Positions 1-58,543 of a stretch of DNA of 64,000 nt are shown here, one piece after another (the first letter of the stretch is position 1; every line of letters starts with the position of its first letter). The position numbers and the translations under genes were made by a program. The stretch spans positions 1-64,000 of IMG/VR virus record IMGVR_UViG_3300037067_006044; one strand, 5' to 3'. This DNA comes from a virus (Duplodnaviria; Caudoviricetes). A model generated the notes under the pieces. The model was not told the DNA's origin and ran no database searches. It saw nothing but the letters and a program-made list of their open reading frames with translations.

Positions 1-125
1 TCTGACATTTGGTTTATTTCTGTTATTTCTTTGAGTTTTGAATCTAAGATTTGAAACCATTTTTGGGTTTTTTCTTTCTTTAAAATTTTAGCACTTAAAA
101 TCGATGTGATTTGTTTTGTTGTCAT
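1..125 (-). CDS. N-terminal part of a hypothetical protein running off the window edge (MTTKQITSILSAKILKKEKTQKWFQILDSKLKEITEINQMS...)
   Basis: ATG at 125-123, frame open to position 1; promoter-like motif at 190-199; not in the supplied ORF track. Confidence 0.7.
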   Translation of the reverse strand, partial: MTTKQITSILSAKILKKEKTQKWFQILDSKLKEITEINQMS

Positions 126-189
126 TCTTGTTACTGTGTTAATTGTTTATAATTTATTTATAAGTTAATCTGATTCTATTAACTTTGTA

Positions 190-199
190 TATAAATATA
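190..199 (-). promoter_or_regulatory. TATATTTATA putative phage promoter for the edge gene
   Basis: Same 10-mer precedes the tail tube gene and other units; its upstream context aaaaacatataaaaa is repeated at the 384-393 copy. Confidence 0.5.
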
Positions 200-239
200 A
201 AACAATTAAAAAAACATATAAAAAGTACAGTTTTTGTGT

Positions 240-274
240 AAAAAAAAAGAGTCAATAAATATATTATTGACTCT
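240..274 (-). terminator. Intrinsic terminator of sRNA 1
   Basis: 11-bp stem agagtcaataa/ttattgactct followed on the minus strand by a U tract (A run 240-248). Confidence 0.75.
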
Positions 275-380
275 GAAGTATATGTGTATTGGGTTTCGGT
301 ATAAGTATTTAGTAACACAGTAAATTTTATTCCTTACCATCTTAGAGAATCAATCCAAGACTTTTCCACCCAACTTATTT
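240..380 (-). ncRNA. Putative two-loop antisense sRNA 1 targeting the leader of the edge gene
   Basis: Non-coding and GC-richer; promoter 384-393; hairpin 340-360 with loop UUGAUUC; hairpin 307-325 carrying an 11-nt match to 131-141; outer stem 289-294/368-373; terminator 248-274. Confidence 0.6.
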
Positions 381-383
381 TAT

Positions 384-393
384 TATAAATATA
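384..393 (-). promoter_or_regulatory. TATATTTATA putative promoter for sRNA 1
   Basis: Motif and upstream context duplicated from 190-225. Confidence 0.5.
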
Positions 394-6783: not shown

Positions 6784-6815
6784 TTTGTTTATTAATTTTA
6801 TTGTTATTATATTTG
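6784..6815 (+). promoter_or_regulatory. Bacteroidota sigma-A type promoter (TTTG-N20-TATATTTG)
   Basis: Matches the Bacteroidota -33/-7 consensus; 35 bp identical to copies at 31283-31317 and 53249-53283. Confidence 0.8.
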
Positions 6816-6840
6816 TACAAATAATTAAAAACACAACTAA

Positions 6841-21306: not shown

Positions 21307-21338
21307 AATTTATTAAATTTTAAATTGTTTTTCATTTA

Positions 21339-21370
21339 CAAATATAATATTCTTTTTCAATATAAGCAAA
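21339..21370 (-). promoter_or_regulatory. Bacteroidota-type promoter
   Basis: TTTG-N20-TATATTTG. Confidence 0.7.
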
Positions 21371-23399: not shown

Positions 23400-23421
23400 A
23401 ATTTATATTTTTAATTATTTA

Positions 23422-23452
23422 CAAATATAATATTAATTTTAATATAAACAAA
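23422..23452 (-). promoter_or_regulatory. Bacteroidota-type promoter
   Basis: TTTG-N19-TATATTTG. Confidence 0.7.
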
Positions 23453-23545: not shown

Positions 23546-23851
23546 ATGACAAAAGAACAATTAATAAAACAATATACTGATTTAGGCATTAATAAAAATA
23601 AAATAATAATTGTTGATTTACCGTCTAATTGCTATTCGATAACAAGAAAAAGAATAGTGAATGATGATTATTTAGAAATCATAACAGAAAATAATCAAAT
23701 TCGAGCAAGTATAGAAAATAATAGAACTGTTAATTGTTTTAGTTCATATCCAGATTTTATCAATGTTGAAAAAGCAAATAAAGATGGAATTATTATTATG
23801 AAAAATGACAAGGAAAATATATTAAGATATGCTTATTGTCCAACAGAATAA
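23546..23851 (+). CDS. Hypothetical protein
   Basis: Follows TATATTTTTA motif at 23518-23527. Confidence 0.6.
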   Translation: MTKEQLIKQYTDLGINKNKIIIVDLPSNCYSITRKRIVNDDYLEIITENNQIRASIENNRTVNCFSSYPDFINVEKANKDGIIIMKNDKENILRYAYCPTE

Positions 23852-31249: not shown

Positions 31250-31284
31250 TTTTATAAGTTTTAAATTGTTTAATTTTTACTCTA

Positions 31285-31316
31285 CAAATATAATAACAAT
31301 AAAATTAATAAACAAA
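31285..31316 (-). promoter_or_regulatory. Bacteroidota-type promoter, identical 35-bp copy
   Basis: Identical to the 6783-6817 and 53249-53283 copies. Confidence 0.8.
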
Positions 31317-32072: not shown

Positions 32073-32279
32073 TGTGTTTATGTTTTAAATTGTTTAATAA
32101 TTATAGTACAAATATAATATTAATTTCTGTATCTACAAAATATTTTAACATTAAAATTAATTTATTTTTAATATTTACCCTTTATTAACAAATAAAAAGT
32201 CCATAAAATTAATTATGAACTTTAATATTAATTGATTATACGTTTGTATTAACAAACAAAAACAGTTATAATGTTTGTA

Positions 32280-34745
32280 TTAATATACAAATTCATCTGA
32301 ATATTTTAATGGTAAATTAGAATATAAATCAGTAGTACAATTATTTCTTAATGTTCTATTCCTGCCTATTGCTTGTACTATTTCAGATTCTATTAATGAT
32401 AATTGTATTTCTCTTAATTTTTGATGTTGAAAAGTATTAAATTTAAATCTAAAATTATTCCATTCTATTAATTGATATTCTGTTGCTGTTTGAGTATCTG
32501 CTGGAGATAATGATATTCCTAATGCACTTGCATAAAAGAAATAAACCATATTAGGTTTATGATCGGTTCCTACAACTGCAATATTTTTTCCCGTTAAATT
32601 ATTATAACCAGAACAATTTCCAAAGTGCATATTTTTTACAGGATTATCAAACTCATCTTTAAATTCTTGAAATGTTATTGTTGGTAAATTTCCTACTAAT
32701 TTTTTTATTTGATTAACATAAGTTTTTAATCCTTGTCTTGAACATGAATGTTTAGTATGTTGAGTTATTTTACCTACTTGTTCTACATTATCAATTTCTA
32801 TTATTTCTAATCTGTCACCAAACATTTCTTTATAGATTGCAATAGGAGCAGTTGCACTCATTATAACTATCTTTTTGTCTGCTGGTAAATCTGCTTTAGT
32901 TATAAACCATATTTCAGAAGGATTATGTAATGGTTTAAATACAAACTTAGAATGTAGAAATTTTAATATTTTAATTTTATTTAATTTAGCTGCAATAGGA
33001 ATAACTTTATCATATTTAAAAGCAAAACTTTTTGTTGGTTCTATACATTCATGTAGCATATTGTGTAACCAATTAAATATTTCTTTAAATTGTTCGTCTA
33101 ATTCAGTATTAAAAAATGAAAAAATATCATTTATAGTTATTTTATCTATTTTTAATACTTGTTGAATTGGGTCTTCATCAAATATAATAGTATTATGATT
33201 AGAACCATATATTCCTCTTGCATGAGTTGTTAAAACTGTATTCTTACTTTTAAAACAATCATTTATCTCATTAATATACTTTTTAGCAAGAATTACATCG
33301 TTTGAATCATATATTATTTCTACATTGACTTTAGTTAAGATTTGTTTTTTATTCGATATATTGGATATTAATTTATATACATCTGATACTAATCCTTCTT
33401 CATATAATGTAGTTATATATTTGTTTATTATATTATTTTTAAAAATTGGTAATCTTGGTATCTTCTTTACATTTGGTATTTTCATTCTATCAAATATTTC
33501 ATCTTTTAAATTGTGAGTTGGTAGAGCAATTAAACAATTTTCTGCATATTCTAATAGAGTTGTTTTACCTAAACCAGTTACAACTTTAAATAAATAAACT
33601 TTTGTGTCATCTGAATTCATTACTCTGTCAAATTCAGTCTTTAATTTATTTCCTGCTTCCATAAGTGGTATTTTTTTAATTATTTTATTTATATCAATTA
33701 TATCTATTCTTCCTTTTCTCCATTTATCAACATTAAGAATATTTGAATAATTCCAATCCGATTTATAAGGACTGAAATTTATTAGTGATTGTGGAGAATA
33801 TTTTTGTTTCTGTATATAAGGTATTATTGCATAATTGTTTGGTGTATAAAATGTTAATCCTAATTCATTATACTTATTCAATACTTTTTTAAATACTTTT
33901 AATCCACCATTAATCCAATATAAATTTGTTGCCAATCCAAATAATTGGTTGTGATGTAACCATTTTCCATCTAAAAAATCTTTAAAAATATTAATATTTA
34001 AATATGCTTTATCAAAATTATAATGTTGAATTATTTTAAACTTTGAATTATTTTCATTAATCTGTATTAAGGCAGTATCTTCTATATAATCAGTATAAGA
34101 GTTAATGTCTAAATACATATTATTTTTAGTTGAATCATAACATAGTCTGGTTCTATTTTTATCGTCTGCAATAACAAAAAGATTTAAAATATTTATAACA
34201 TTTTCTAAATTATTTAATTCTTCATTTCTATATATTTCAGATTTACCACCATGAAACATCCTTGCAAAATCCTTACATTGAGTATCTCTTCTTGGAAACA
34301 TTTTAAAAAAATTGTCGTATAGAAATGTTCTTAGTTTTTTGTCTTCAACAGTTGTATCAAATGCAATAATACCTCTAAACTTTCTTAATGCCGGACTATC
34401 ACTAAATGTACCATAAACAAGATTCGGAATTATTCCATTTCTTTTACAATCTTCTATAAATTCTTCCGGTGTATAGCCATCATCAAAATCAAGAGTAACC
34501 ATGTCTTGAGCTAACCAATTTATATTATTTCTTTTACTGTGAAAATAAACACCTGGTGACCATGTAAATCCATTGTCTTGGGTAGGATTAATTGTAGTAT
34601 CATTTACCACAATCCAACTTAATTCTTCCATATTGTGGATTTCTATTCCACTTCTAAAACCATTTGATATAATTCCTATTTCTTCATCTTCTGGTTTAAC
34701 ACTTCGTTTAAAGTCCGAATTGACTGAAATCAACATTTGTCTCAT
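32280..34745 (-). CDS. AEP-like primase domain fused to an SF2-like helicase/ATPase domain
   Basis: N-terminal LDFDD, YGTFS, KFRG, DFARMF; C-terminal TGLGKTT, IIFDEDP, MSATAP, QAIGRNR. Confidence 0.75.
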   Translation of the reverse strand: MRQMLISVNSDFKRSVKPEDEEIGIISNGFRSGIEIHNMEELSWIVVNDTTINPTQDNGFTWSPGVYFHSKRNNINWLAQDMVTLDFDDGYTPEEFIEDCKRNGIIPNLVYGTFSDSPALRKFRGIIAFDTTVEDKKLRTFLYDNFFKMFPRRDTQCKDFARMFHGGKSEIYRNEELNNLENVINILNLFVIADDKNRTRLCYDSTKNNMYLDINSYTDYIEDTALIQINENNSKFKIIQHYNFDKAYLNINIFKDFLDGKWLHHNQLFGLATNLYWINGGLKVFKKVLNKYNELGLTFYTPNNYAIIPYIQKQKYSPQSLINFSPYKSDWNYSNILNVDKWRKGRIDIIDINKIIKKIPLMEAGNKLKTEFDRVMNSDDTKVYLFKVVTGLGKTTLLEYAENCLIALPTHNLKDEIFDRMKIPNVKKIPRLPIFKNNIINKYITTLYEEGLVSDVYKLISNISNKKQILTKVNVEIIYDSNDVILAKKYINEINDCFKSKNTVLTTHARGIYGSNHNTIIFDEDPIQQVLKIDKITINDIFSFFNTELDEQFKEIFNWLHNMLHECIEPTKSFAFKYDKVIPIAAKLNKIKILKFLHSKFVFKPLHNPSEIWFITKADLPADKKIVIMSATAPIAIYKEMFGDRLEIIEIDNVEQVGKITQHTKHSCSRQGLKTYVNQIKKLVGNLPTITFQEFKDEFDNPVKNMHFGNCSGYNNLTGKNIAVVGTDHKPNMVYFFYASALGISLSPADTQTATEYQLIEWNNFRFKFNTFQHQKLREIQLSLIESEIVQAIGRNRTLRNNCTTDLYSNLPLKYSDEFVY

Positions 34746-34826
34746 ACTGACGTTTTTAAATTGTTTTTAATTTTTATATTATAGTATTTTAATAAAAAAG
34801 AAATCTGAACACTTTCTTTTCTTATA

Positions 34827-34836
34827 TATAAATATA
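34827..34836 (-). promoter_or_regulatory. TATATTTATA putative promoter for the primase-helicase mRNA
   Basis: Lies between the sRNA 2 terminator and the leader hairpin 34796-34820. Confidence 0.5.
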
Positions 34837-34856
34837 AAAATTAAAAATTTTTATTA

Positions 34857-34960
34857 AATAAAAATAGCCGAAATAAATCCGGCTATGAAATCAAATATTA
34901 AAACGTCAGTAAAAATATCCAATTTTTAAAATCTTGAAGGATGTTCAGTCCCCTTTATAT
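34857..34960 (-). ncRNA. Putative two-loop antisense sRNA 2 targeting the primase-helicase leader
   Basis: Promoter 34962-34971; hairpin 34937-34955 with loop CUGAACA; hairpin 34888-34925 with loop containing UACUGACGUUUU; terminator 34864-34886. Confidence 0.65.
34860..34886 (-). terminator. Intrinsic terminator of sRNA 2
   Basis: GC-rich stem atagccg/cggctat followed by a U tract on the minus strand. Confidence 0.75.
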
Positions 34961-35051
34961 CTATAAATATAATAAAAATATAAAAAAAATAAATATTATA
35001 ACAAATAAAAATTTAAACATTTTATATTTATAATTAAAAAATAAATAGTTT

Positions 35052-36158
35052 ATGATTCAAAACATAAAATCACCAACAGAATTAAGTGGATTCTACATTG
35101 TTTTCAATGGTTCTGTTCAAAATGAAAAACCAGGAATAAGAGGAATAAGTCATTTAATGGAACATTTGATATATAAAGGAAATGAAAAATTATACAATAT
35201 ATTTTCCGGTTTAGCTGTAAATGGAAACGCATTTACTTCATCAAATATCGTTGTATTTCACATTACAGGATTAGATCAATTCATAGACAAGTACAAATAT
35301 TCATTTTTAAAGAATCTAAGTAAATTTAATATTACAGAAAAGCAATTTCAAAATGAAAAGAATATAGTAATACAAGAATACTTTGATTTCTTTAATGAAC
35401 AATCATATAGACATCATGATAATCTATTAAGAAAATATTTAAATTTTTATGGAGCAATAGGAAGTTTAAATGATTTAAAGAATTTAAAGTTAGAAGATTG
35501 TTATGATTATTTTGATAAGTTTTTTAAAAATCCAACTCAAATAATAAATATAAGTAAGAATCATCCATTTGAAGAAAGTATTAATTTCGAAGATAAAAAA
35601 CAATACCCAAATCCAGTTTTATCAGAATATAAGAATGTAGAAATAGATTATAAGAATAATCATGATAAGACATCAGTAATGTATTTTAGTGATGTAGTAA
35701 CAAATGATTTTGCAATAATTAATTTTATTTGTTTAATGTTGGGAAATGGATTAAATAGTCCATTATATGAATTAGTAAGAGAAAGATATGGATTAGTATA
35801 TCATATAGAAATAGGATTAGAACAATTGACTAATAATAGTGGGATTATTCTTATCAATACATTAACTGATAATGTTATGAATGCACAAAAGATACAAGTA
35901 ATATTAAATCACATATTAGATAATCCAAAGAAATATTTAACTGAAGAAAGATTTAATAATCAAAGAAGATTAGTAAAGATAGAATTGGCAAAAGAAAATA
36001 TAAATAGGTATGCTAATTTTGAACATCTTTTAAATGATAAAACTTGGGATATTAAGAATTATATTGATAGAATAACAATGGAAGATATATATAGAATATA
36101 TAATAAATATTTTAAATCATTCAAACAATCAATTGACAAAATAGAATTTAATAAATAA
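35052..36158 (+). CDS. M16 family zinc peptidase
   Basis: GISHLMEH (HxxEH), NAFTS, EKNIVIQE, LYELVRERYGLVY. Confidence 0.9.
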   Translation: MIQNIKSPTELSGFYIVFNGSVQNEKPGIRGISHLMEHLIYKGNEKLYNIFSGLAVNGNAFTSSNIVVFHITGLDQFIDKYKYSFLKNLSKFNITEKQFQNEKNIVIQEYFDFFNEQSYRHHDNLLRKYLNFYGAIGSLNDLKNLKLEDCYDYFDKFFKNPTQIINISKNHPFEESINFEDKKQYPNPVLSEYKNVEIDYKNNHDKTSVMYFSDVVTNDFAIINFICLMLGNGLNSPLYELVRERYGLVYHIEIGLEQLTNNSGIILINTLTDNVMNAQKIQVILNHILDNPKKYLTEERFNNQRRLVKIELAKENINRYANFEHLLNDKTWDIKNYIDRITMEDIYRIYNKYFKSFKQSIDKIEFNK

Positions 36159-38763: not shown

Positions 38764-39063
38764 ATATTTAAGTTTTAAATTGTTTTATTTAACTCTACAA
38801 ATATAAAACAATTTCTTCAATCTACAAAATAAAAACCAATTAAAATTTAATTTTTAACATTTATTAACAAAAAGAAAACTCTAATCATCTGAATAATTGG
38901 AGCTTAAAATATTTATTAATTTTTATATTTATTCATCAACTTGTCAAATGTTTGTTATTCTTAATTGTTATGAATAATAATTAATTATAAAATCCTTTTC
39001 CTTTAATAGTTAGAAATAATAATACAATCTCTATTGTTCTGACTCTTCAGCTTGAAAAGTTTT

Positions 39064-49983: not shown

Positions 49984-50088
49984 TGTTTTATTTTATTTAT
50001 AATTAATTTTATTTTACAAATATAATATTAATATTCTTAATAAACAAATAATTTTTAAATTATTTTATATTTATATTAAAAATAAAAT

Positions 50089-53228: not shown

Positions 53229-53250
53229 ATTTTATACTTTTTAATTTCTA

Positions 53251-53282
53251 CAAATATAATAACAATAAAATTAATAAACAAA
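53251..53282 (-). promoter_or_regulatory. Bacteroidota-type promoter, identical 35-bp copy
   Basis: TTTG-N20-TATATTTG. Confidence 0.8.
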
Positions 53283-53322: not shown

Positions 53323-55017
53323 ATGGTAATTTGCAAAATTTGTAATGAAGAATTTGAAAATTATGCTTTCTTATCTTCACACATTAGATTTAAACATAAA
53401 ATGACTTCTTATGATTATAGTTTGAAATACGATTATAATGGAGAAATTCATAAATGTAAGTGTGGGTGTGGTCAAGAAACTAAATGGTTTAATATCAATA
53501 TCGGTTTTTATGATTTTGTAAAAGGTCATGACAATACTTTTAGACATCAACAATTATTAATTAAAAAAGTTTGTATTATTTGTGGAACAGAATTTAAAAC
53601 AAAAAATAAAGATAAAGTTATTTGCACTAAAAGAGAATGTTATCAAAAAGATTTATATAATAGAACTCACGAAATAAGAACTTGTCCTTGTGGAGAAAAA
53701 TTCGAATGTTCTAAAACATCACCTCAAATATATCATTCTTTTGAATGTAGTAGAAAAGACCCAGCAATGTGGGAAAAAATGAGACAAACATTAATTGAAA
53801 CATATGGTGTTGACAATTATTCTAAAACAGAAGAGTTTAAAGAATGTGCAAGAGAAAATTCATATTTTAAAACAGAGGAATTTCAAGTAAAAGCTAAGAA
53901 AACAAAAGAAGAACGATATGATGATGAAAATTATAATAATAGACCAAAAGCAGTAAATAGTAATTTAAAATTTTATTTTAATAATTTATTTACTTCTGAT
54001 AGATTAAAGAACTTGGTTACTCCATTATTTACTATTGATGATTATAAAGGAGTAGATAAAATATATCAATTTAAATGTAATAGATGCGATAATATATTTG
54101 AATCCAATTTATTTCATATTCCAAGATGTTTAGAATGTTTTCCATTTAAAAAAAATACATCTGAAGGAGAGATTGAATTATTTAATTATATTAAATCATT
54201 AATTCCAAATGAAAATATTATACAAAACGATATAAAAACATTACCAAATAATTTAGAAATTGATATATATATTCCTAATTTAAATATTGCATTTGAATAT
54301 AATGGAATATATTGGCATAGTGCAAAATTTAAAAATTATAATTATCATAAATGGAAATATGAAAAATGCAAAGAACAAAATATTCAATTAATTCAAATAT
54401 TTGAAAATGAATGGATTTTTAAAAAAGAAATTGTAAAGTCAATTATTAAAAACAAATTAAAATTAATAAAGAATAAAATATATGCGAGAAAATGTGAAAT
54501 TAAAGAAATAAATAGTCAAGAATCAAATAGTTTTTTATTTGATAATCATATTCAAGGAATAGTAAACACACAATATAAATTCGGATTATTTTATAATGAC
54601 AAATTAATTTCATTGATGACAATTGGAAAATCAAGATTTGATAAAAAATATGAATATGAAATAATACGATTCTGTAATAAAATAAATTATTCTATTATTG
54701 GTGGATTTAATAAACTTTTATCTTATTTCATTAAAACATATAATCCAAATTCTATAATCAGTTATGTTGATAAAAGATATTTTACTGGGAATATGTATAA
54801 TCAAACAGATTTTAAATTAATAGAATCATATAATAAACCAAATTATTTTTATTTTAAAGGATATGAAATGTATAATAGAATTGAATTCCAAAAACATAAA
54901 TTAAAAGATAAATTAGAAATATACGATGAAAATCTAACAGAATGGCAAAATATGGAATTAAATGGATATAATAAAATTTATGATTGTGGAAATTTTAAAT
55001 ATGTCTGGGAAAAATAA
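53323..55017 (+). CDS. Free-standing homing endonuclease, Hef-like (Zn fingers plus Vsr/PD-(D/E)xK-like domain)
   Basis: C2H2 start, CKCGCG, YGVDNY, EIDIYIP..IAFEYNGIYWHS, IYARKC, NHIQG, YVDKRY, IYDCG. Confidence 0.8.
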   Translation: MVICKICNEEFENYAFLSSHIRFKHKMTSYDYSLKYDYNGEIHKCKCGCGQETKWFNINIGFYDFVKGHDNTFRHQQLLIKKVCIICGTEFKTKNKDKVICTKRECYQKDLYNRTHEIRTCPCGEKFECSKTSPQIYHSFECSRKDPAMWEKMRQTLIETYGVDNYSKTEEFKECARENSYFKTEEFQVKAKKTKEERYDDENYNNRPKAVNSNLKFYFNNLFTSDRLKNLVTPLFTIDDYKGVDKIYQFKCNRCDNIFESNLFHIPRCLECFPFKKNTSEGEIELFNYIKSLIPNENIIQNDIKTLPNNLEIDIYIPNLNIAFEYNGIYWHSAKFKNYNYHKWKYEKCKEQNIQLIQIFENEWIFKKEIVKSIIKNKLKLIKNKIYARKCEIKEINSQESNSFLFDNHIQGIVNTQYKFGLFYNDKLISLMTIGKSRFDKKYEYEIIRFCNKINYSIIGGFNKLLSYFIKTYNPNSIISYVDKRYFTGNMYNQTDFKLIESYNKPNYFYFKGYEMYNRIEFQKHKLKDKLEIYDENLTEWQNMELNGYNKIYDCGNFKYVWEK

Positions 55018-56734: not shown

Positions 56735-58543
56735 ATGAAATGTAAATTTTGTCAAGAAGAAATTAAAGAAGGAAAAGAATATTGTAATAGAACATGTTTT
56801 AATAATCACAGAAAAGAATTATATTATAAAATTGTAAAATGTTTAAATTGTACTAATACAATACAAATAAAAAAAACAAATAATCATACTAAATTCTGTT
56901 GTAATAATTGTAAAAAAGAATTTGCAAATAAACAATATAAACACAAAAAAATATGCAAAAACTGCAGCAGAGAATTTGAATTATATAAATCAGAAACATT
57001 GATATTTTGTTGTCATGCTTGTAGATGCGAATATGATAGAAAACAATTTAGAGAAGACAGAATTTGTAAAAAATGTGGAAACACATTTAACACATTTAAA
57101 AGTAGTGATCAAGAATTTTGTACTCATGAATGTTATATTGAATATATAAAAGAAATAACAAAAATAAAATATGATACAGAATTTTCAAATTGTTTATTAT
57201 GTGGAGAAAAAATAAGATTAAATGAAAAATTTTGTTGTAAGGCACATAAAGAAAAATATTATTCACAAAAAAGCAGAGAAATAAGAATATGTGAATGTGG
57301 TAGAGAATTTGAAGTGTATAAAAAAGATTCAAAATTTTTATGTTCTGATGAATGTCAAAAAAAATATATTCTAAAACCAGAAGTTTTGGATAAGATAAAA
57401 GAAAAACGTGCAATCACTTCTAATTTCAATAATTATAATGCAAGAATAGACAAAATAAAATCTTTAAATTTATTTGATTTTGATTGTTCGGAAGAAGAGT
57501 ATAAATCCAATAAAAATATTAAATTAAAATGTAAAAAATGTGGATATGAATTTGAAGAAAAAATTAATTTAAATCATTTGCCAAGTTGTATAAAATGTAA
57601 TCCTATTCCATATATATTATCTAAACCAGAAGAAGAATTAAGTGATTATATACATTCTATAATAAATAAAAATATAATAGAAAATAAAAGAACAATTATA
57701 AGACCTTTAGAATTAGATTTTTATCTACCAGATTATAATTTAGCTATTGAATTTGATGGTTGTTATTGGCATAGTGAAATTCATGGACATAAAGATAAAA
57801 AATATCATATTAATAAAACTAAAATGTGTGAATCCCAAGGAATTCAATTAATTCATATATTTGATGATGAATGGACAAATAAAAAAGAAATAATTAAAAA
57901 CACAATAAAACATAAATTAAATTTAAATAATACAGATAAAATATATGCAAGAAAATGTATAATTAAAGAAATAAATTCAAAAACAAAAAATACATTTTTA
58001 AATAATAATCACATTCAAGGAGAAGATAAAAGTAAAATTAAACTCGGATTATTTTATAATGATGAATTAGTTGCAGTCATGACTTTTGGAAAATTGCGAT
58101 TAGCATTAGGAAATAAAACATCTAATATTAATGAATATGAGTTAATAAGATTTGCAACATCTAAAACAATTATTGGTGGATTTAGTAAATTATTGTCTTA
58201 TTTTATTAAAACATATAATCCAATTAAAATAACAACTTATGCTGATAAAAGATGGAGTAATGGAAATGTTTATATTAAAAACGGATTTAATCTTATACAT
58301 GAAACTCAACCAAATTATTGGTATATGAAAAATTATAGTATTAGAGAACATAGATTCAAATATAGAAAATCAGAATTACCTAAATTATTAACAAATTATA
58401 ATTCGGAATTAACTGAATGGGATAATATGCAATTAAATGGATATGATAGAATTTGGGATTGTGGTTCATTAAAATTTGAAATGAATATCTCTCAACTTAA
58501 TACTTCTGATAAAAATAATATTAACAAGCTATTCGAATTTTAA
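56735..58543 (+). CDS. Free-standing homing endonuclease, Hef-like, with tandem Cys4 Zn repeats
   Basis: Repeated CxxC...FCxxxC units; ELDFYLP..LAIEFDGCYWHS, IYARKC, YADKRW, IWDCG; paralog of 53323..55017; ends NKLFEF. Confidence 0.8.
   Translation: MKCKFCQEEIKEGKEYCNRTCFNNHRKELYYKIVKCLNCTNTIQIKKTNNHTKFCCNNCKKEFANKQYKHKKICKNCSREFELYKSETLIFCCHACRCEYDRKQFREDRICKKCGNTFNTFKSSDQEFCTHECYIEYIKEITKIKYDTEFSNCLLCGEKIRLNEKFCCKAHKEKYYSQKSREIRICECGREFEVYKKDSKFLCSDECQKKYILKPEVLDKIKEKRAITSNFNNYNARIDKIKSLNLFDFDCSEEEYKSNKNIKLKCKKCGYEFEEKINLNHLPSCIKCNPIPYILSKPEEELSDYIHSIINKNIIENKRTIIRPLELDFYLPDYNLAIEFDGCYWHSEIHGHKDKKYHINKTKMCESQGIQLIHIFDDEWTNKKEIIKNTIKHKLNLNNTDKIYARKCIIKEINSKTKNTFLNNNHIQGEDKSKIKLGLFYNDELVAVMTFGKLRLALGNKTSNINEYELIRFATSKTIIGGFSKLLSYFIKTYNPIKITTYADKRWSNGNVYIKNGFNLIHETQPNYWYMKNYSIREHRFKYRKSELPKLLTNYNSELTEWDNMQLNGYDRIWDCGSLKFEMNISQLNTSDKNNINKLFEF

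Follow-up and report, generated by a model that had tools for sequence, protein, structure and literature searches.

The DNA considered here, hereafter the window, is the first 64 kb of a 101,564-bp IMG/VR virus record (IMGVR_UViG_3300037067_006044) with an estimated completeness of 36%; its G+C content is 21% throughout. On the minus strand, at 32280-34745 with the ATG at 34745-34743, lies a gene for an 821-residue protein that we describe below as a primase-helicase. Upstream of this gene is a set of elements, called cassette W, in which a unit bounded by a promoter-like motif and a terminator displays, in a predicted hairpin loop, an exact complement of the gene's translation start. We propose that this unit specifies a small RNA that represses the gene. 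A sister unit in the same genome is called cassette 1, and loci with homologs of the gene carry L-numbers.

Elements of the cassette

An earlier note on this DNA, made from the sequence alone, had described a small RNA with two hairpins, a terminator, and two promoters at this locus; all of its elements are present where it placed them, on the minus strand. In the direction of transcription, the cassette begins with P1 (34962-34971), a promoter-like motif that is an exact TATATTTATA. A small RNA of about 100 nucleotides (nt) is predicted at 34855-34958, its 5′ end being placed from P1 and its 3′ end from a U-run. It would fold into hairpin A, hairpin B, and a terminator, at −22.6 kcal/mol (z = −2.55 against shuffles). 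In the minimum free energy (MFE) fold, hairpin A (34937-34953) has a 5-bp stem, GGGGA/UCCUU, and the 7-nt loop CUGAACA (34942-34948). For hairpin B (34888-34925), RNAfold gives a 12-bp stem (34925-34914/34899-34888), with three G-U pairs, closing a 14-nt loop (34913-34900). The intrinsic terminator (34855-34886) consists of a stem-loop at 34864-34886 with nine pairs, four of them G-C, and a loop of 5, then UUUUUAUUU; its tail is TTTTTATTTAA. It is the sole terminator-like site in the 900 nt scanned, for which shuffles lead one to expect 0.1. The small RNA contains no open reading frame (ORF) and has no other copy in the genome, and no Rfam family was matched by it or by the unit region.

Downstream of the terminator is a second exact TATATTTATA, P2 (34827-34836, −91 to −82), the promoter-like motif of the mRNA. 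Its distance from the ATG, 81 nt, makes for a leader that is unusually long for this genome. P1 and P2 are thus identical 10-mers, and their T-rich upstream contexts are similar. The 5′ leader of the mRNA forms a hairpin (34794-34822) of 8-10 bp with UGUUCAG (34805-34811) within its 9-nt loop, and the leader ends in the translation initiation region, −11 to +1 (34745-34756), which is the target of the loop of hairpin B. The two complementary segments share the minus strand with P1, P2, and the terminator. At the level of motifs, the unit has a promoter and an intrinsic terminator of its own, as an independent small RNA should, and both are kept in the homologous cassettes. An alternative pairing with the 5′ arm of the terminator, as in an antiterminator, did not appear in the computed folds, a search that was not exhaustive.

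P2 and the leader hairpin are bracketed by a 17-bp perfect inverted repeat made up of A and T only (34831-34847/34764-34780; span 34764-34847). Because its 5′ arm overlaps P2, both arms would be found only in RNA that reads through from P1. Outside it there is an 11-bp repeat (−113 to −103/−53 to −43), and with the 12-nt complement described next these make a large nested palindrome centred near 34808.

A loop complementary to the translation start

The loop of hairpin B contains the whole of UACUGACGUUUU (34911-34900), all 12 bases of which can form Watson-Crick pairs with AAAACGUCAGUA (34756-34745), positions −11 to +1 of the gene. Exact copies of the 12-mer in the 64 kb are limited to this pair, one in loop B and one in the start region. 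In 300 dinucleotide shuffles of the upstream 305 nt, a match as good was rare (p = 0.003 for run length and 0.007 for duplex energy). With weighting for 21% G+C, the match scores 23.7 bits and takes rank 1 among the start/upstream complements of the 151 genes of the genome. The claim of a 12/12 complement in loop B is thus borne out, and it exceeds chance by both shuffling and genome ranking. The note had also held that the RNA covers the start codon. The pairing does reach the A of the ATG, but the rest of the ATG is unpaired in cassette W, so that the wording was generous; in L009, L010, and L012 the whole ATG is paired.

Both partners are predicted to be accessible. On average, the 12-mer is unpaired with probability 0.68, compared with 0.43 in the remainder of the small RNA; the target region has an unpaired probability of 0.60 in the P2 transcript.

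Homologous cassettes and cognate pairing

A search with the single protein found no related loci in viral contigs. A profile search found 13 viral, 80 metagenomic, and 80 genomic loci, among which the feature is present in L012 only and possibly in L312. The nearest homologs, 46-48% identical, are at L009, L010, and L011. L009 and L010 are two paralogs 45 kb apart on one 168-kb metagenomic contig, each with its own cassette and its private start complement. L012 holds a 36%-identical homolog on a 139.6-kb viral contig of 22% G+C. With W and cassette 1, these make six cassettes on four contigs.

A common layout unites them: a TATATTTATA-type motif, a structured region of 105-145 nt, a stem with a U-run, a second promoter-like motif, a leader hairpin, and the ATG. 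The 5′-proximal leader hairpin, in particular, recurs in L009, L010, L011, L012, and cassette 1. The primary sequence is not conserved between W and the cassettes of L009-L012. Five of the six cassettes nevertheless carry an exact cognate start complement of 10-13 nt, and its sequence differs each time. The complement covers −11 to +1 in W (12 nt, 23.6 bits in the matrix of all pairs), −1 to +11 in L010 (UAUGAUACACAA; 12 nt, 21.8 bits), −9 to +4 in L012 (AAGCAAAAAAUGA; 13 nt, 23.1 bits), and −2 to +8 in L009 (AUAUGAAAAC; 10 nt, with a second copy of 8 nt; 17.2 bits). In cassette 1 (123-393, minus strand), whose sequence is unrelated to that of W, UUACUGUGUUA (313-323) is an 11/11 complement of UAACACAGUAA (131-141, −16 to −6), at 20.4 bits.

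In this composition-weighted matrix, all five cognates score higher than any of the 30 non-cognate pairs (mean 11.5 bits, standard deviation 1.9, maximum 15.9). By our own arithmetic, the chance that five of six cognates would take the top five of 36 ranks is 6/376,992. Two other scores served less well: the RNAduplex matrix is swamped by long A/U-rich duplexes, and RNAcofold cannot represent loop-to-strand pairing, its cognate gains being near zero except in W. The match at the L012 homolog is rank 1 of 200 genes in its contig, which is an independent replication of the rank 1 found for W. Since the cross-scores between L009 and L010 are at background (10.9 and 11.3 bits), the two paralogous cassettes look orthogonal. 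Covariation among homologous upstream regions had been put forward as a check on the original proposal, and it favours that proposal: pairing is kept through full sequence turnover in L009, L010, L012, and cassette 1. Observed directly are the elements in the sequence, the fact that they are conserved, and the way in which the pairing co-varies.

The placement of the complement within the RNA is also shared. In four of the five complement-bearing cassettes (W, L009, L010, and L012), the anti-start segment lies in an accessible loop, with unpaired probabilities of 0.65-0.97 against 0.36-0.43 for the remaining RNA. For L009, L010, and L012, the terminator stem also closes a multibranch domain, with the complement within it. 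Such closed-domain display fits a modular recognition loop rather than a plain arm of a cis hairpin.

These comparisons bear on an explanation at the level of DNA, according to which the repeats would be protein-binding sites, a replication origin, a site of autoregulation by the PrimPol-helicase, a cruciform, or the ends of a mobile insert. Nested inverted repeats (the 12-bp and 17-bp repeats and the hairpin) do lie in a 306-bp divergent intergenic region beside a replication gene, and origins are often next to initiator genes. Against this, one arm is always on the start region (−16 to +11) in the five cassettes, whatever its sequence, which is the signature of RNA and translation, and the other arm has RNA hairpins and a terminator around it in every case. 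There are no iterons, and the unit occurs just once in the genome, so that it is no repeated mobile element. Moreover, the gene that follows cassette 1 has an N-terminus with no evident resemblance to those of the helicase family. We therefore regard a DNA-level role as improbable.

The gene downstream of cassette 1 (1-125, minus strand) runs off the end of the contig, leaving a 41-residue N-terminus (MTTKQITSILSAK...). No evident likeness to helicase-family N-termini was found for these 41 residues, and they had no match in the L012 or L013 contigs.

Distant homologs and control loci

Distant homologs (about 130 loci) mostly have no cassette at all. Among 73 further homolog loci from genomes, scores averaged 12.7 bits (standard deviation 2.2), with no signal, and about 60 metagenomic homolog loci gave no start-complement signal apart from an artefact at L104. 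The 12-nt match there was rejected, since its upstream copy is itself a gene start: a divergent gene opens with identical letters (TATTATGAAAAA). The top genomic locus, L312, encodes a homolog of 40% identity and has a 13-nt complement of −7 to +6 at 293 nt upstream, with a 65-residue ORF between (L312:1118-1256 and 1494-1506); its UUUCAUAUUUUAA is directly 5′ of a strong GGGGA...UCCCC-U7 terminator. L312 is a possible further, distant member, although its complement is A/T-rich and hence weaker.

As a control, IMG/VR was scanned for the pattern promoter, N, U-run, promoter. The 120 matches were in AT-rich viruses, many of them giant viruses, and 29 had a downstream ORF. In these 29 unrelated AT-rich double-motif loci, start complements were not enriched, with one match only. 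The outlier of the scan, on a contig of a giant-virus MAG (GVMAG; L169:6296-6480, minus strand), has a 23-nt exact complement of positions −16 to +7 of a gene between two TATATTTATA motifs. The other double-promoter regions of the present genome, at the ribonucleotide reductase and ligase genes and at ORFs that begin at 23546, 43501, and 68084, lack both a terminator and any start complement containing G or C.

One may also suppose that the small RNA is real and has its main targets elsewhere, in host mRNAs or those of other phages, or that its match to the adjacent start is incidental. The unit at L011 contains two copies of UUGCUUUGAUU, for which there is no target in its 4.3-kb contig, and the loop of hairpin A in W matches a coding site at +17 as well (GACUGAA/UUCAGUC), showing how easily 7-mer matches arise. 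The cognate specificity of five of six cassettes speaks against this supposition, as do the first rank of the start match in two genomes and the lack of any further copy of the 12-mer in the window, and of the explanations considered here we hold it to be the least probable.

A possible second contact between hairpin loops

The loop of hairpin A is complementary to the loop of the leader hairpin at 7/7 Watson-Crick positions, or eight pairs if one G-U is admitted, and both are apical loops. Similar loop-loop matches, in the same 5′-to-3′ order, are found in cassette 1 (UUGAUUCU/AGAAUCAG, 8 nt), L009 (8/8), and L012 (7/7). The 7-mer itself is not rare, with three copies in the window for 4.35 expected, and only its placement in two apical loops is notable. 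The pairing of these loops, also part of the earlier note, stands as an exact match in W, whereas across the family it is no better than the non-cognate background. We take a contact between loop A and the leader loop to be a plausible candidate.

The primase-helicase

The 821-residue protein has no significant sequence-profile match in Pfam or the PDB, and PHROGs gives only an unnamed family. Its AlphaFold model, with a predicted local distance difference test (pLDDT) score of 86.8, was compared with known structures by Foldseek. The C-terminal ~600 residues match XPD/DinG helicases (XPD 3crv, E 4e-12), and the N-terminus matches the archaeo-eukaryotic primase (AEP) domain of the cyanophage S-2L PrimPol (6zp9, E 4.9e-6). 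In an alignment of 33 sequences, the invariant residues are D86/D88 (LDFDD), G393-K394-T395, D523-E524-D525, and Q791/G794/R795/R797 (Q..GR.R). The AEP fold with its DxD motif is thus accompanied by a helicase Walker A, a DEAD-like motif II, and motif VI. By its modelled structure, the protein is an N-terminal AEP PrimPol fused to a C-terminal XPD/DinG-like superfamily 2 (SF2) helicase. Because structure comparison gives these folds, the label "primase-helicase" under which the gene was first noted is fair in a broad sense. Members of this family, at 30-40% identity, are widely distributed in Flavobacterium, Chryseobacterium, Balneolaceae, Chitinophagaceae, and some cyanobacterial and Bacillales genomes, where the copies are presumably on prophages or integrated elements.

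The promoter-like motif and the probable host

TATATTTATA has 14 occurrences in the window where 6.7 are expected, most of them 13-45 nt 5′ of ATGs and on the strand of the gene. Together with the variant TATATTTGTA, it precedes most ATGs at this distance and in this orientation; examples on the minus strand are at 1345-1354, 21337-21346, 23420-23429, 31283-31292, 32107-32116, 38796-38805, 50015-50024, and 53249-53258, and one on the plus strand is at 6808-6817. The motif is similar to the Bacteroidota −7 box, TAnnTTTG, which suggests that the phage uses host-type promoters and that its host belongs to the Bacteroidota. Shine-Dalgarno sequences are absent from the leaders of this genome, and the homologs of the target gene in genomes are almost exclusively from Bacteroidota. 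Given the −7-box-like motif, the leaders without Shine-Dalgarno sequences, and this distribution of homologs, the host is probably a member of the Bacteroidota.

The genes of the window are phage-like and include a class I ribonucleotide reductase, an NAD-dependent ligase, a DnaB-type helicase, an RnlA-like RNA ligase, and HNH endonucleases; tRNA and tmRNA genes were not found in the window. The divergent neighbour of the primase-helicase gene (35052-36158, plus strand) encodes a 368-residue homolog of M16 (insulinase-like) peptidases with an HxxEH motif, which is unusual for a phage, and has its own TATATTTATA 19 nt 5′ of its ATG. Two large, stand-alone paralogous proteins of 560-600 residues, encoded at 53323-55017 and 56735-58543 (plus strand), match PHROGs annotated as HNH/homing endonucleases (E about 1e-113).

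Proposed mechanism

It is very likely that the conserved RNA element exerts real translation control on the PrimPol-helicase gene. Transcription, termination, action in trans, and a physiological role are what we infer from the features described above. The earlier picture of a unit that lies upstream between a promoter and a terminator and displays in a loop a complement of the translation start is supported. On balance we favour, with guarded confidence, the prediction that P1 drives a trans-acting RNA of about 100 nt whose loop B masks the start of the PrimPol-helicase gene. Transcription would start from P1 (34971-34962) and yield a non-coding RNA ending at the terminator (34886-34864). 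The 12 nt in the loop of hairpin B would then pair with −11 to +1 of the mRNA made from P2, and 30S binding would be blocked. Occlusion of an unstructured start region is the most likely mechanism. Bacteroidetes ribosomes need an unstructured start region when Shine-Dalgarno pairing is absent (PMC6847099). Since initiation in Bacteroidota would depend on such a region, pairing at the start should repress effectively. The RNA would thus be a diffusible repressor, and in any transcript extending past the terminator this inhibitory pairing would also be present in cis. As regulator and target share promoter type and template, a limitation of the replication protein in dose or time is likely, as in plasmid copy control. 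The RNA may also confer specificity between related phages or between paralogs.

The alternative that deserves most attention is one in which the complement acts solely in cis. The terminator would then be leaky, or a pause or stability element, and the complement would mask the start only in RNA reading through from P1, so that P1 transcripts would be silent and P2 transcripts translated. The two arms are indeed on the same strand, 143 nt apart, and the MFE fold of the read-through RNA holds all 12/12 pairs (−53.3 kcal/mol, z = −4.7). The 17-bp perfect inverted repeat exists just in that RNA, and A/T complements of 8-17 nt join the spacer between terminator and P2 to the leader near the start in all six cassettes. 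These last, however, are expected by composition from T-rich promoter flanks and A-rich leaders. A canonical stem with a U-run lies between the arms in every cassette, which would be pointless if read-through alone mattered. In L009, L010, and L012, a closed loop contains the complement, and when the read-through RNA is folded as a nested MFE structure, none of the pairing forms (0 pairs). Finally, there is no sign of distinct temporal classes: P1 and P2 are the same exact motif and should fire together, which argues against a temporal promoter switch. We consider an exclusive action in cis unlikely, though it has clearly more in its favour than a DNA-level role. The trans and cis modes are not mutually exclusive.

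Several observations weigh against the trans-acting RNA that we prefer. The read-through RNA of W is predicted to fold with both the 12-bp helix and the 17-bp A/T helix, the 5′ arm of the latter lying over P2; a cis role is physically plausible in W and may be the main one. P1 and P2 are assigned as putative promoters from the motif alone. In L011, the architecture is present and the start complement is absent, its score of 11.8 bits being at background level. For the anti-start segment of cassette 1, the prediction is a largely paired state (unpaired probability 0.15). The scores of cognate loop-loop pairs, 10.0-16.3 bits, overlap those of non-cognate pairs (mean 11.7, maximum 15.9). The cassettes are as few as six, and they include no relatives of more than 50% identity that would show stepwise compensatory changes. 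At L011 itself (L011:660-800), the promoter, a strong GGGAGAUAUG hairpin terminator, the second promoter, and the leader hairpin are all intact.

Significance

It is tempting to propose that large AT-rich Bacteroidota phages harbour an undescribed family of "self-addressed" guide RNAs, in which each copy of the PrimPol-helicase gene, and at least one other gene, has a private trans-acting RNA, loop and target co-evolving so rapidly as to reach orthogonality even between paralogs in one genome. We offer this generalization tentatively and think it rather doubtful in so broad a form. If it were true, it would imply a copy-number-like control of phage replication and possibly an RNA-based exclusion of, or immunity to, related co-infecting phages. 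A promoter-terminator RNA gene repressing the replicative primase-helicase of its phage would bring plasmid-style copy control, or immunity logic of the c4/CI kind discussed below, to a large and possibly lytic phage.

RNA-based regulation in Bacteroidota phages is almost unexplored, and their hosts initiate translation without Shine-Dalgarno pairing. A regulator that masks start regions would provide a clean natural test of initiation in this group. The 10-13-nt pairs, which differ from cassette to cassette, suggest a naturally programmable repressor that might be reused as an orthogonal genetic tool in Bacteroidota. The family is small, however, and these claims are based on sequence analysis.

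Comparison with known systems

Four known systems invite comparison. In the T4 genes e, soc, and I-TevI, start regions are masked in early read-through transcripts, and a proximal promoter gives an unmasked mRNA. Cassette W is similar in that P2 (−91 to −82) lies between the arms (−166 to −155 and −11 to +1), so that a short mRNA would lack the 5′ arm. It differs in that T4 uses two promoter classes and has no terminator between the arms, whereas W has one motif and an intervening terminator, and in that the complement in W is predicted to lie in a closed hairpin loop.

In plasmid copy control by countertranscripts (CopA/CopT of R1, RNAI of ColE2, and pT181), a constitutive structured RNA represses the initiator of its own replicon by way of kissing loops. 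The proposed W RNA would likewise be a short structured RNA with recognition loops that represses a replication protein of its own replicon. The plasmid RNAs, however, come from the opposite strand and are fully complementary to their targets, whereas the W RNA would be separately encoded on the same strand and would pair over 10-13 nt.

The CI RNA of phage P4, like the CB RNA of N15-type phages, is encoded in a leader and shuts off an operon that contains a primase-helicase gene (P4 alpha). Here too, a small RNA encoded upstream on the same strand pairs downstream, and a primase-helicase gene is controlled. CI also presents short sequences that base-pair farther down with leader and start region and that vary in step with their targets. 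In contrast to the W RNA, CI is released from the leader by processing, and its main effect is to end transcription prematurely in the immune state. In W, the predicted pairing is on the start codon of the primase-helicase gene itself, and the two RNAs have no similarity by sequence or model.

With the P4 CI RNA, the c4 RNA is the closest known counterpart. The c4 RNA is encoded upstream of its target on the same strand; its loops recognize sites farther down in the leader, one of which covers the start region of the first gene, and regulator and target sequences co-vary between related phages, thereby defining specificity. The W RNA would likewise share strand and locus with its target and be encoded 5′ of it, and a short sequence displayed in a loop would pair with a downstream start region, with co-variation of regulator and target between relatives. 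As for the two-contact design of c4, the start contact is found in five of the six cassettes, and a candidate second contact is present in W, cassette 1, L009, and L012, but at scores not above the non-cognate background. There are differences as well: c4 is excised from an operon transcript, whereas the W RNA has, at the motif level, its own promoter and intrinsic terminator; the target of c4 is icd/ant, whereas that of W is a replication enzyme; and the W phage is AT-rich, large, and probably Bacteroidota-infecting, with nothing indicating lysogeny. The c4 antisense RNA, from the immI operon of the phages P1 and P7, is the subject of Citron & Schuster (1990), a work to which PMC8198154 and PMC12197685 refer. 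With the C4 model, cmscan gave no match in 34500-35300 (E up to 10), in L009-L012 (E up to 5), or in the window (at the gathering threshold). Judged by its organization, then, the W element is a new variant of the c4/CI logic that stands outside the Rfam C4 family.

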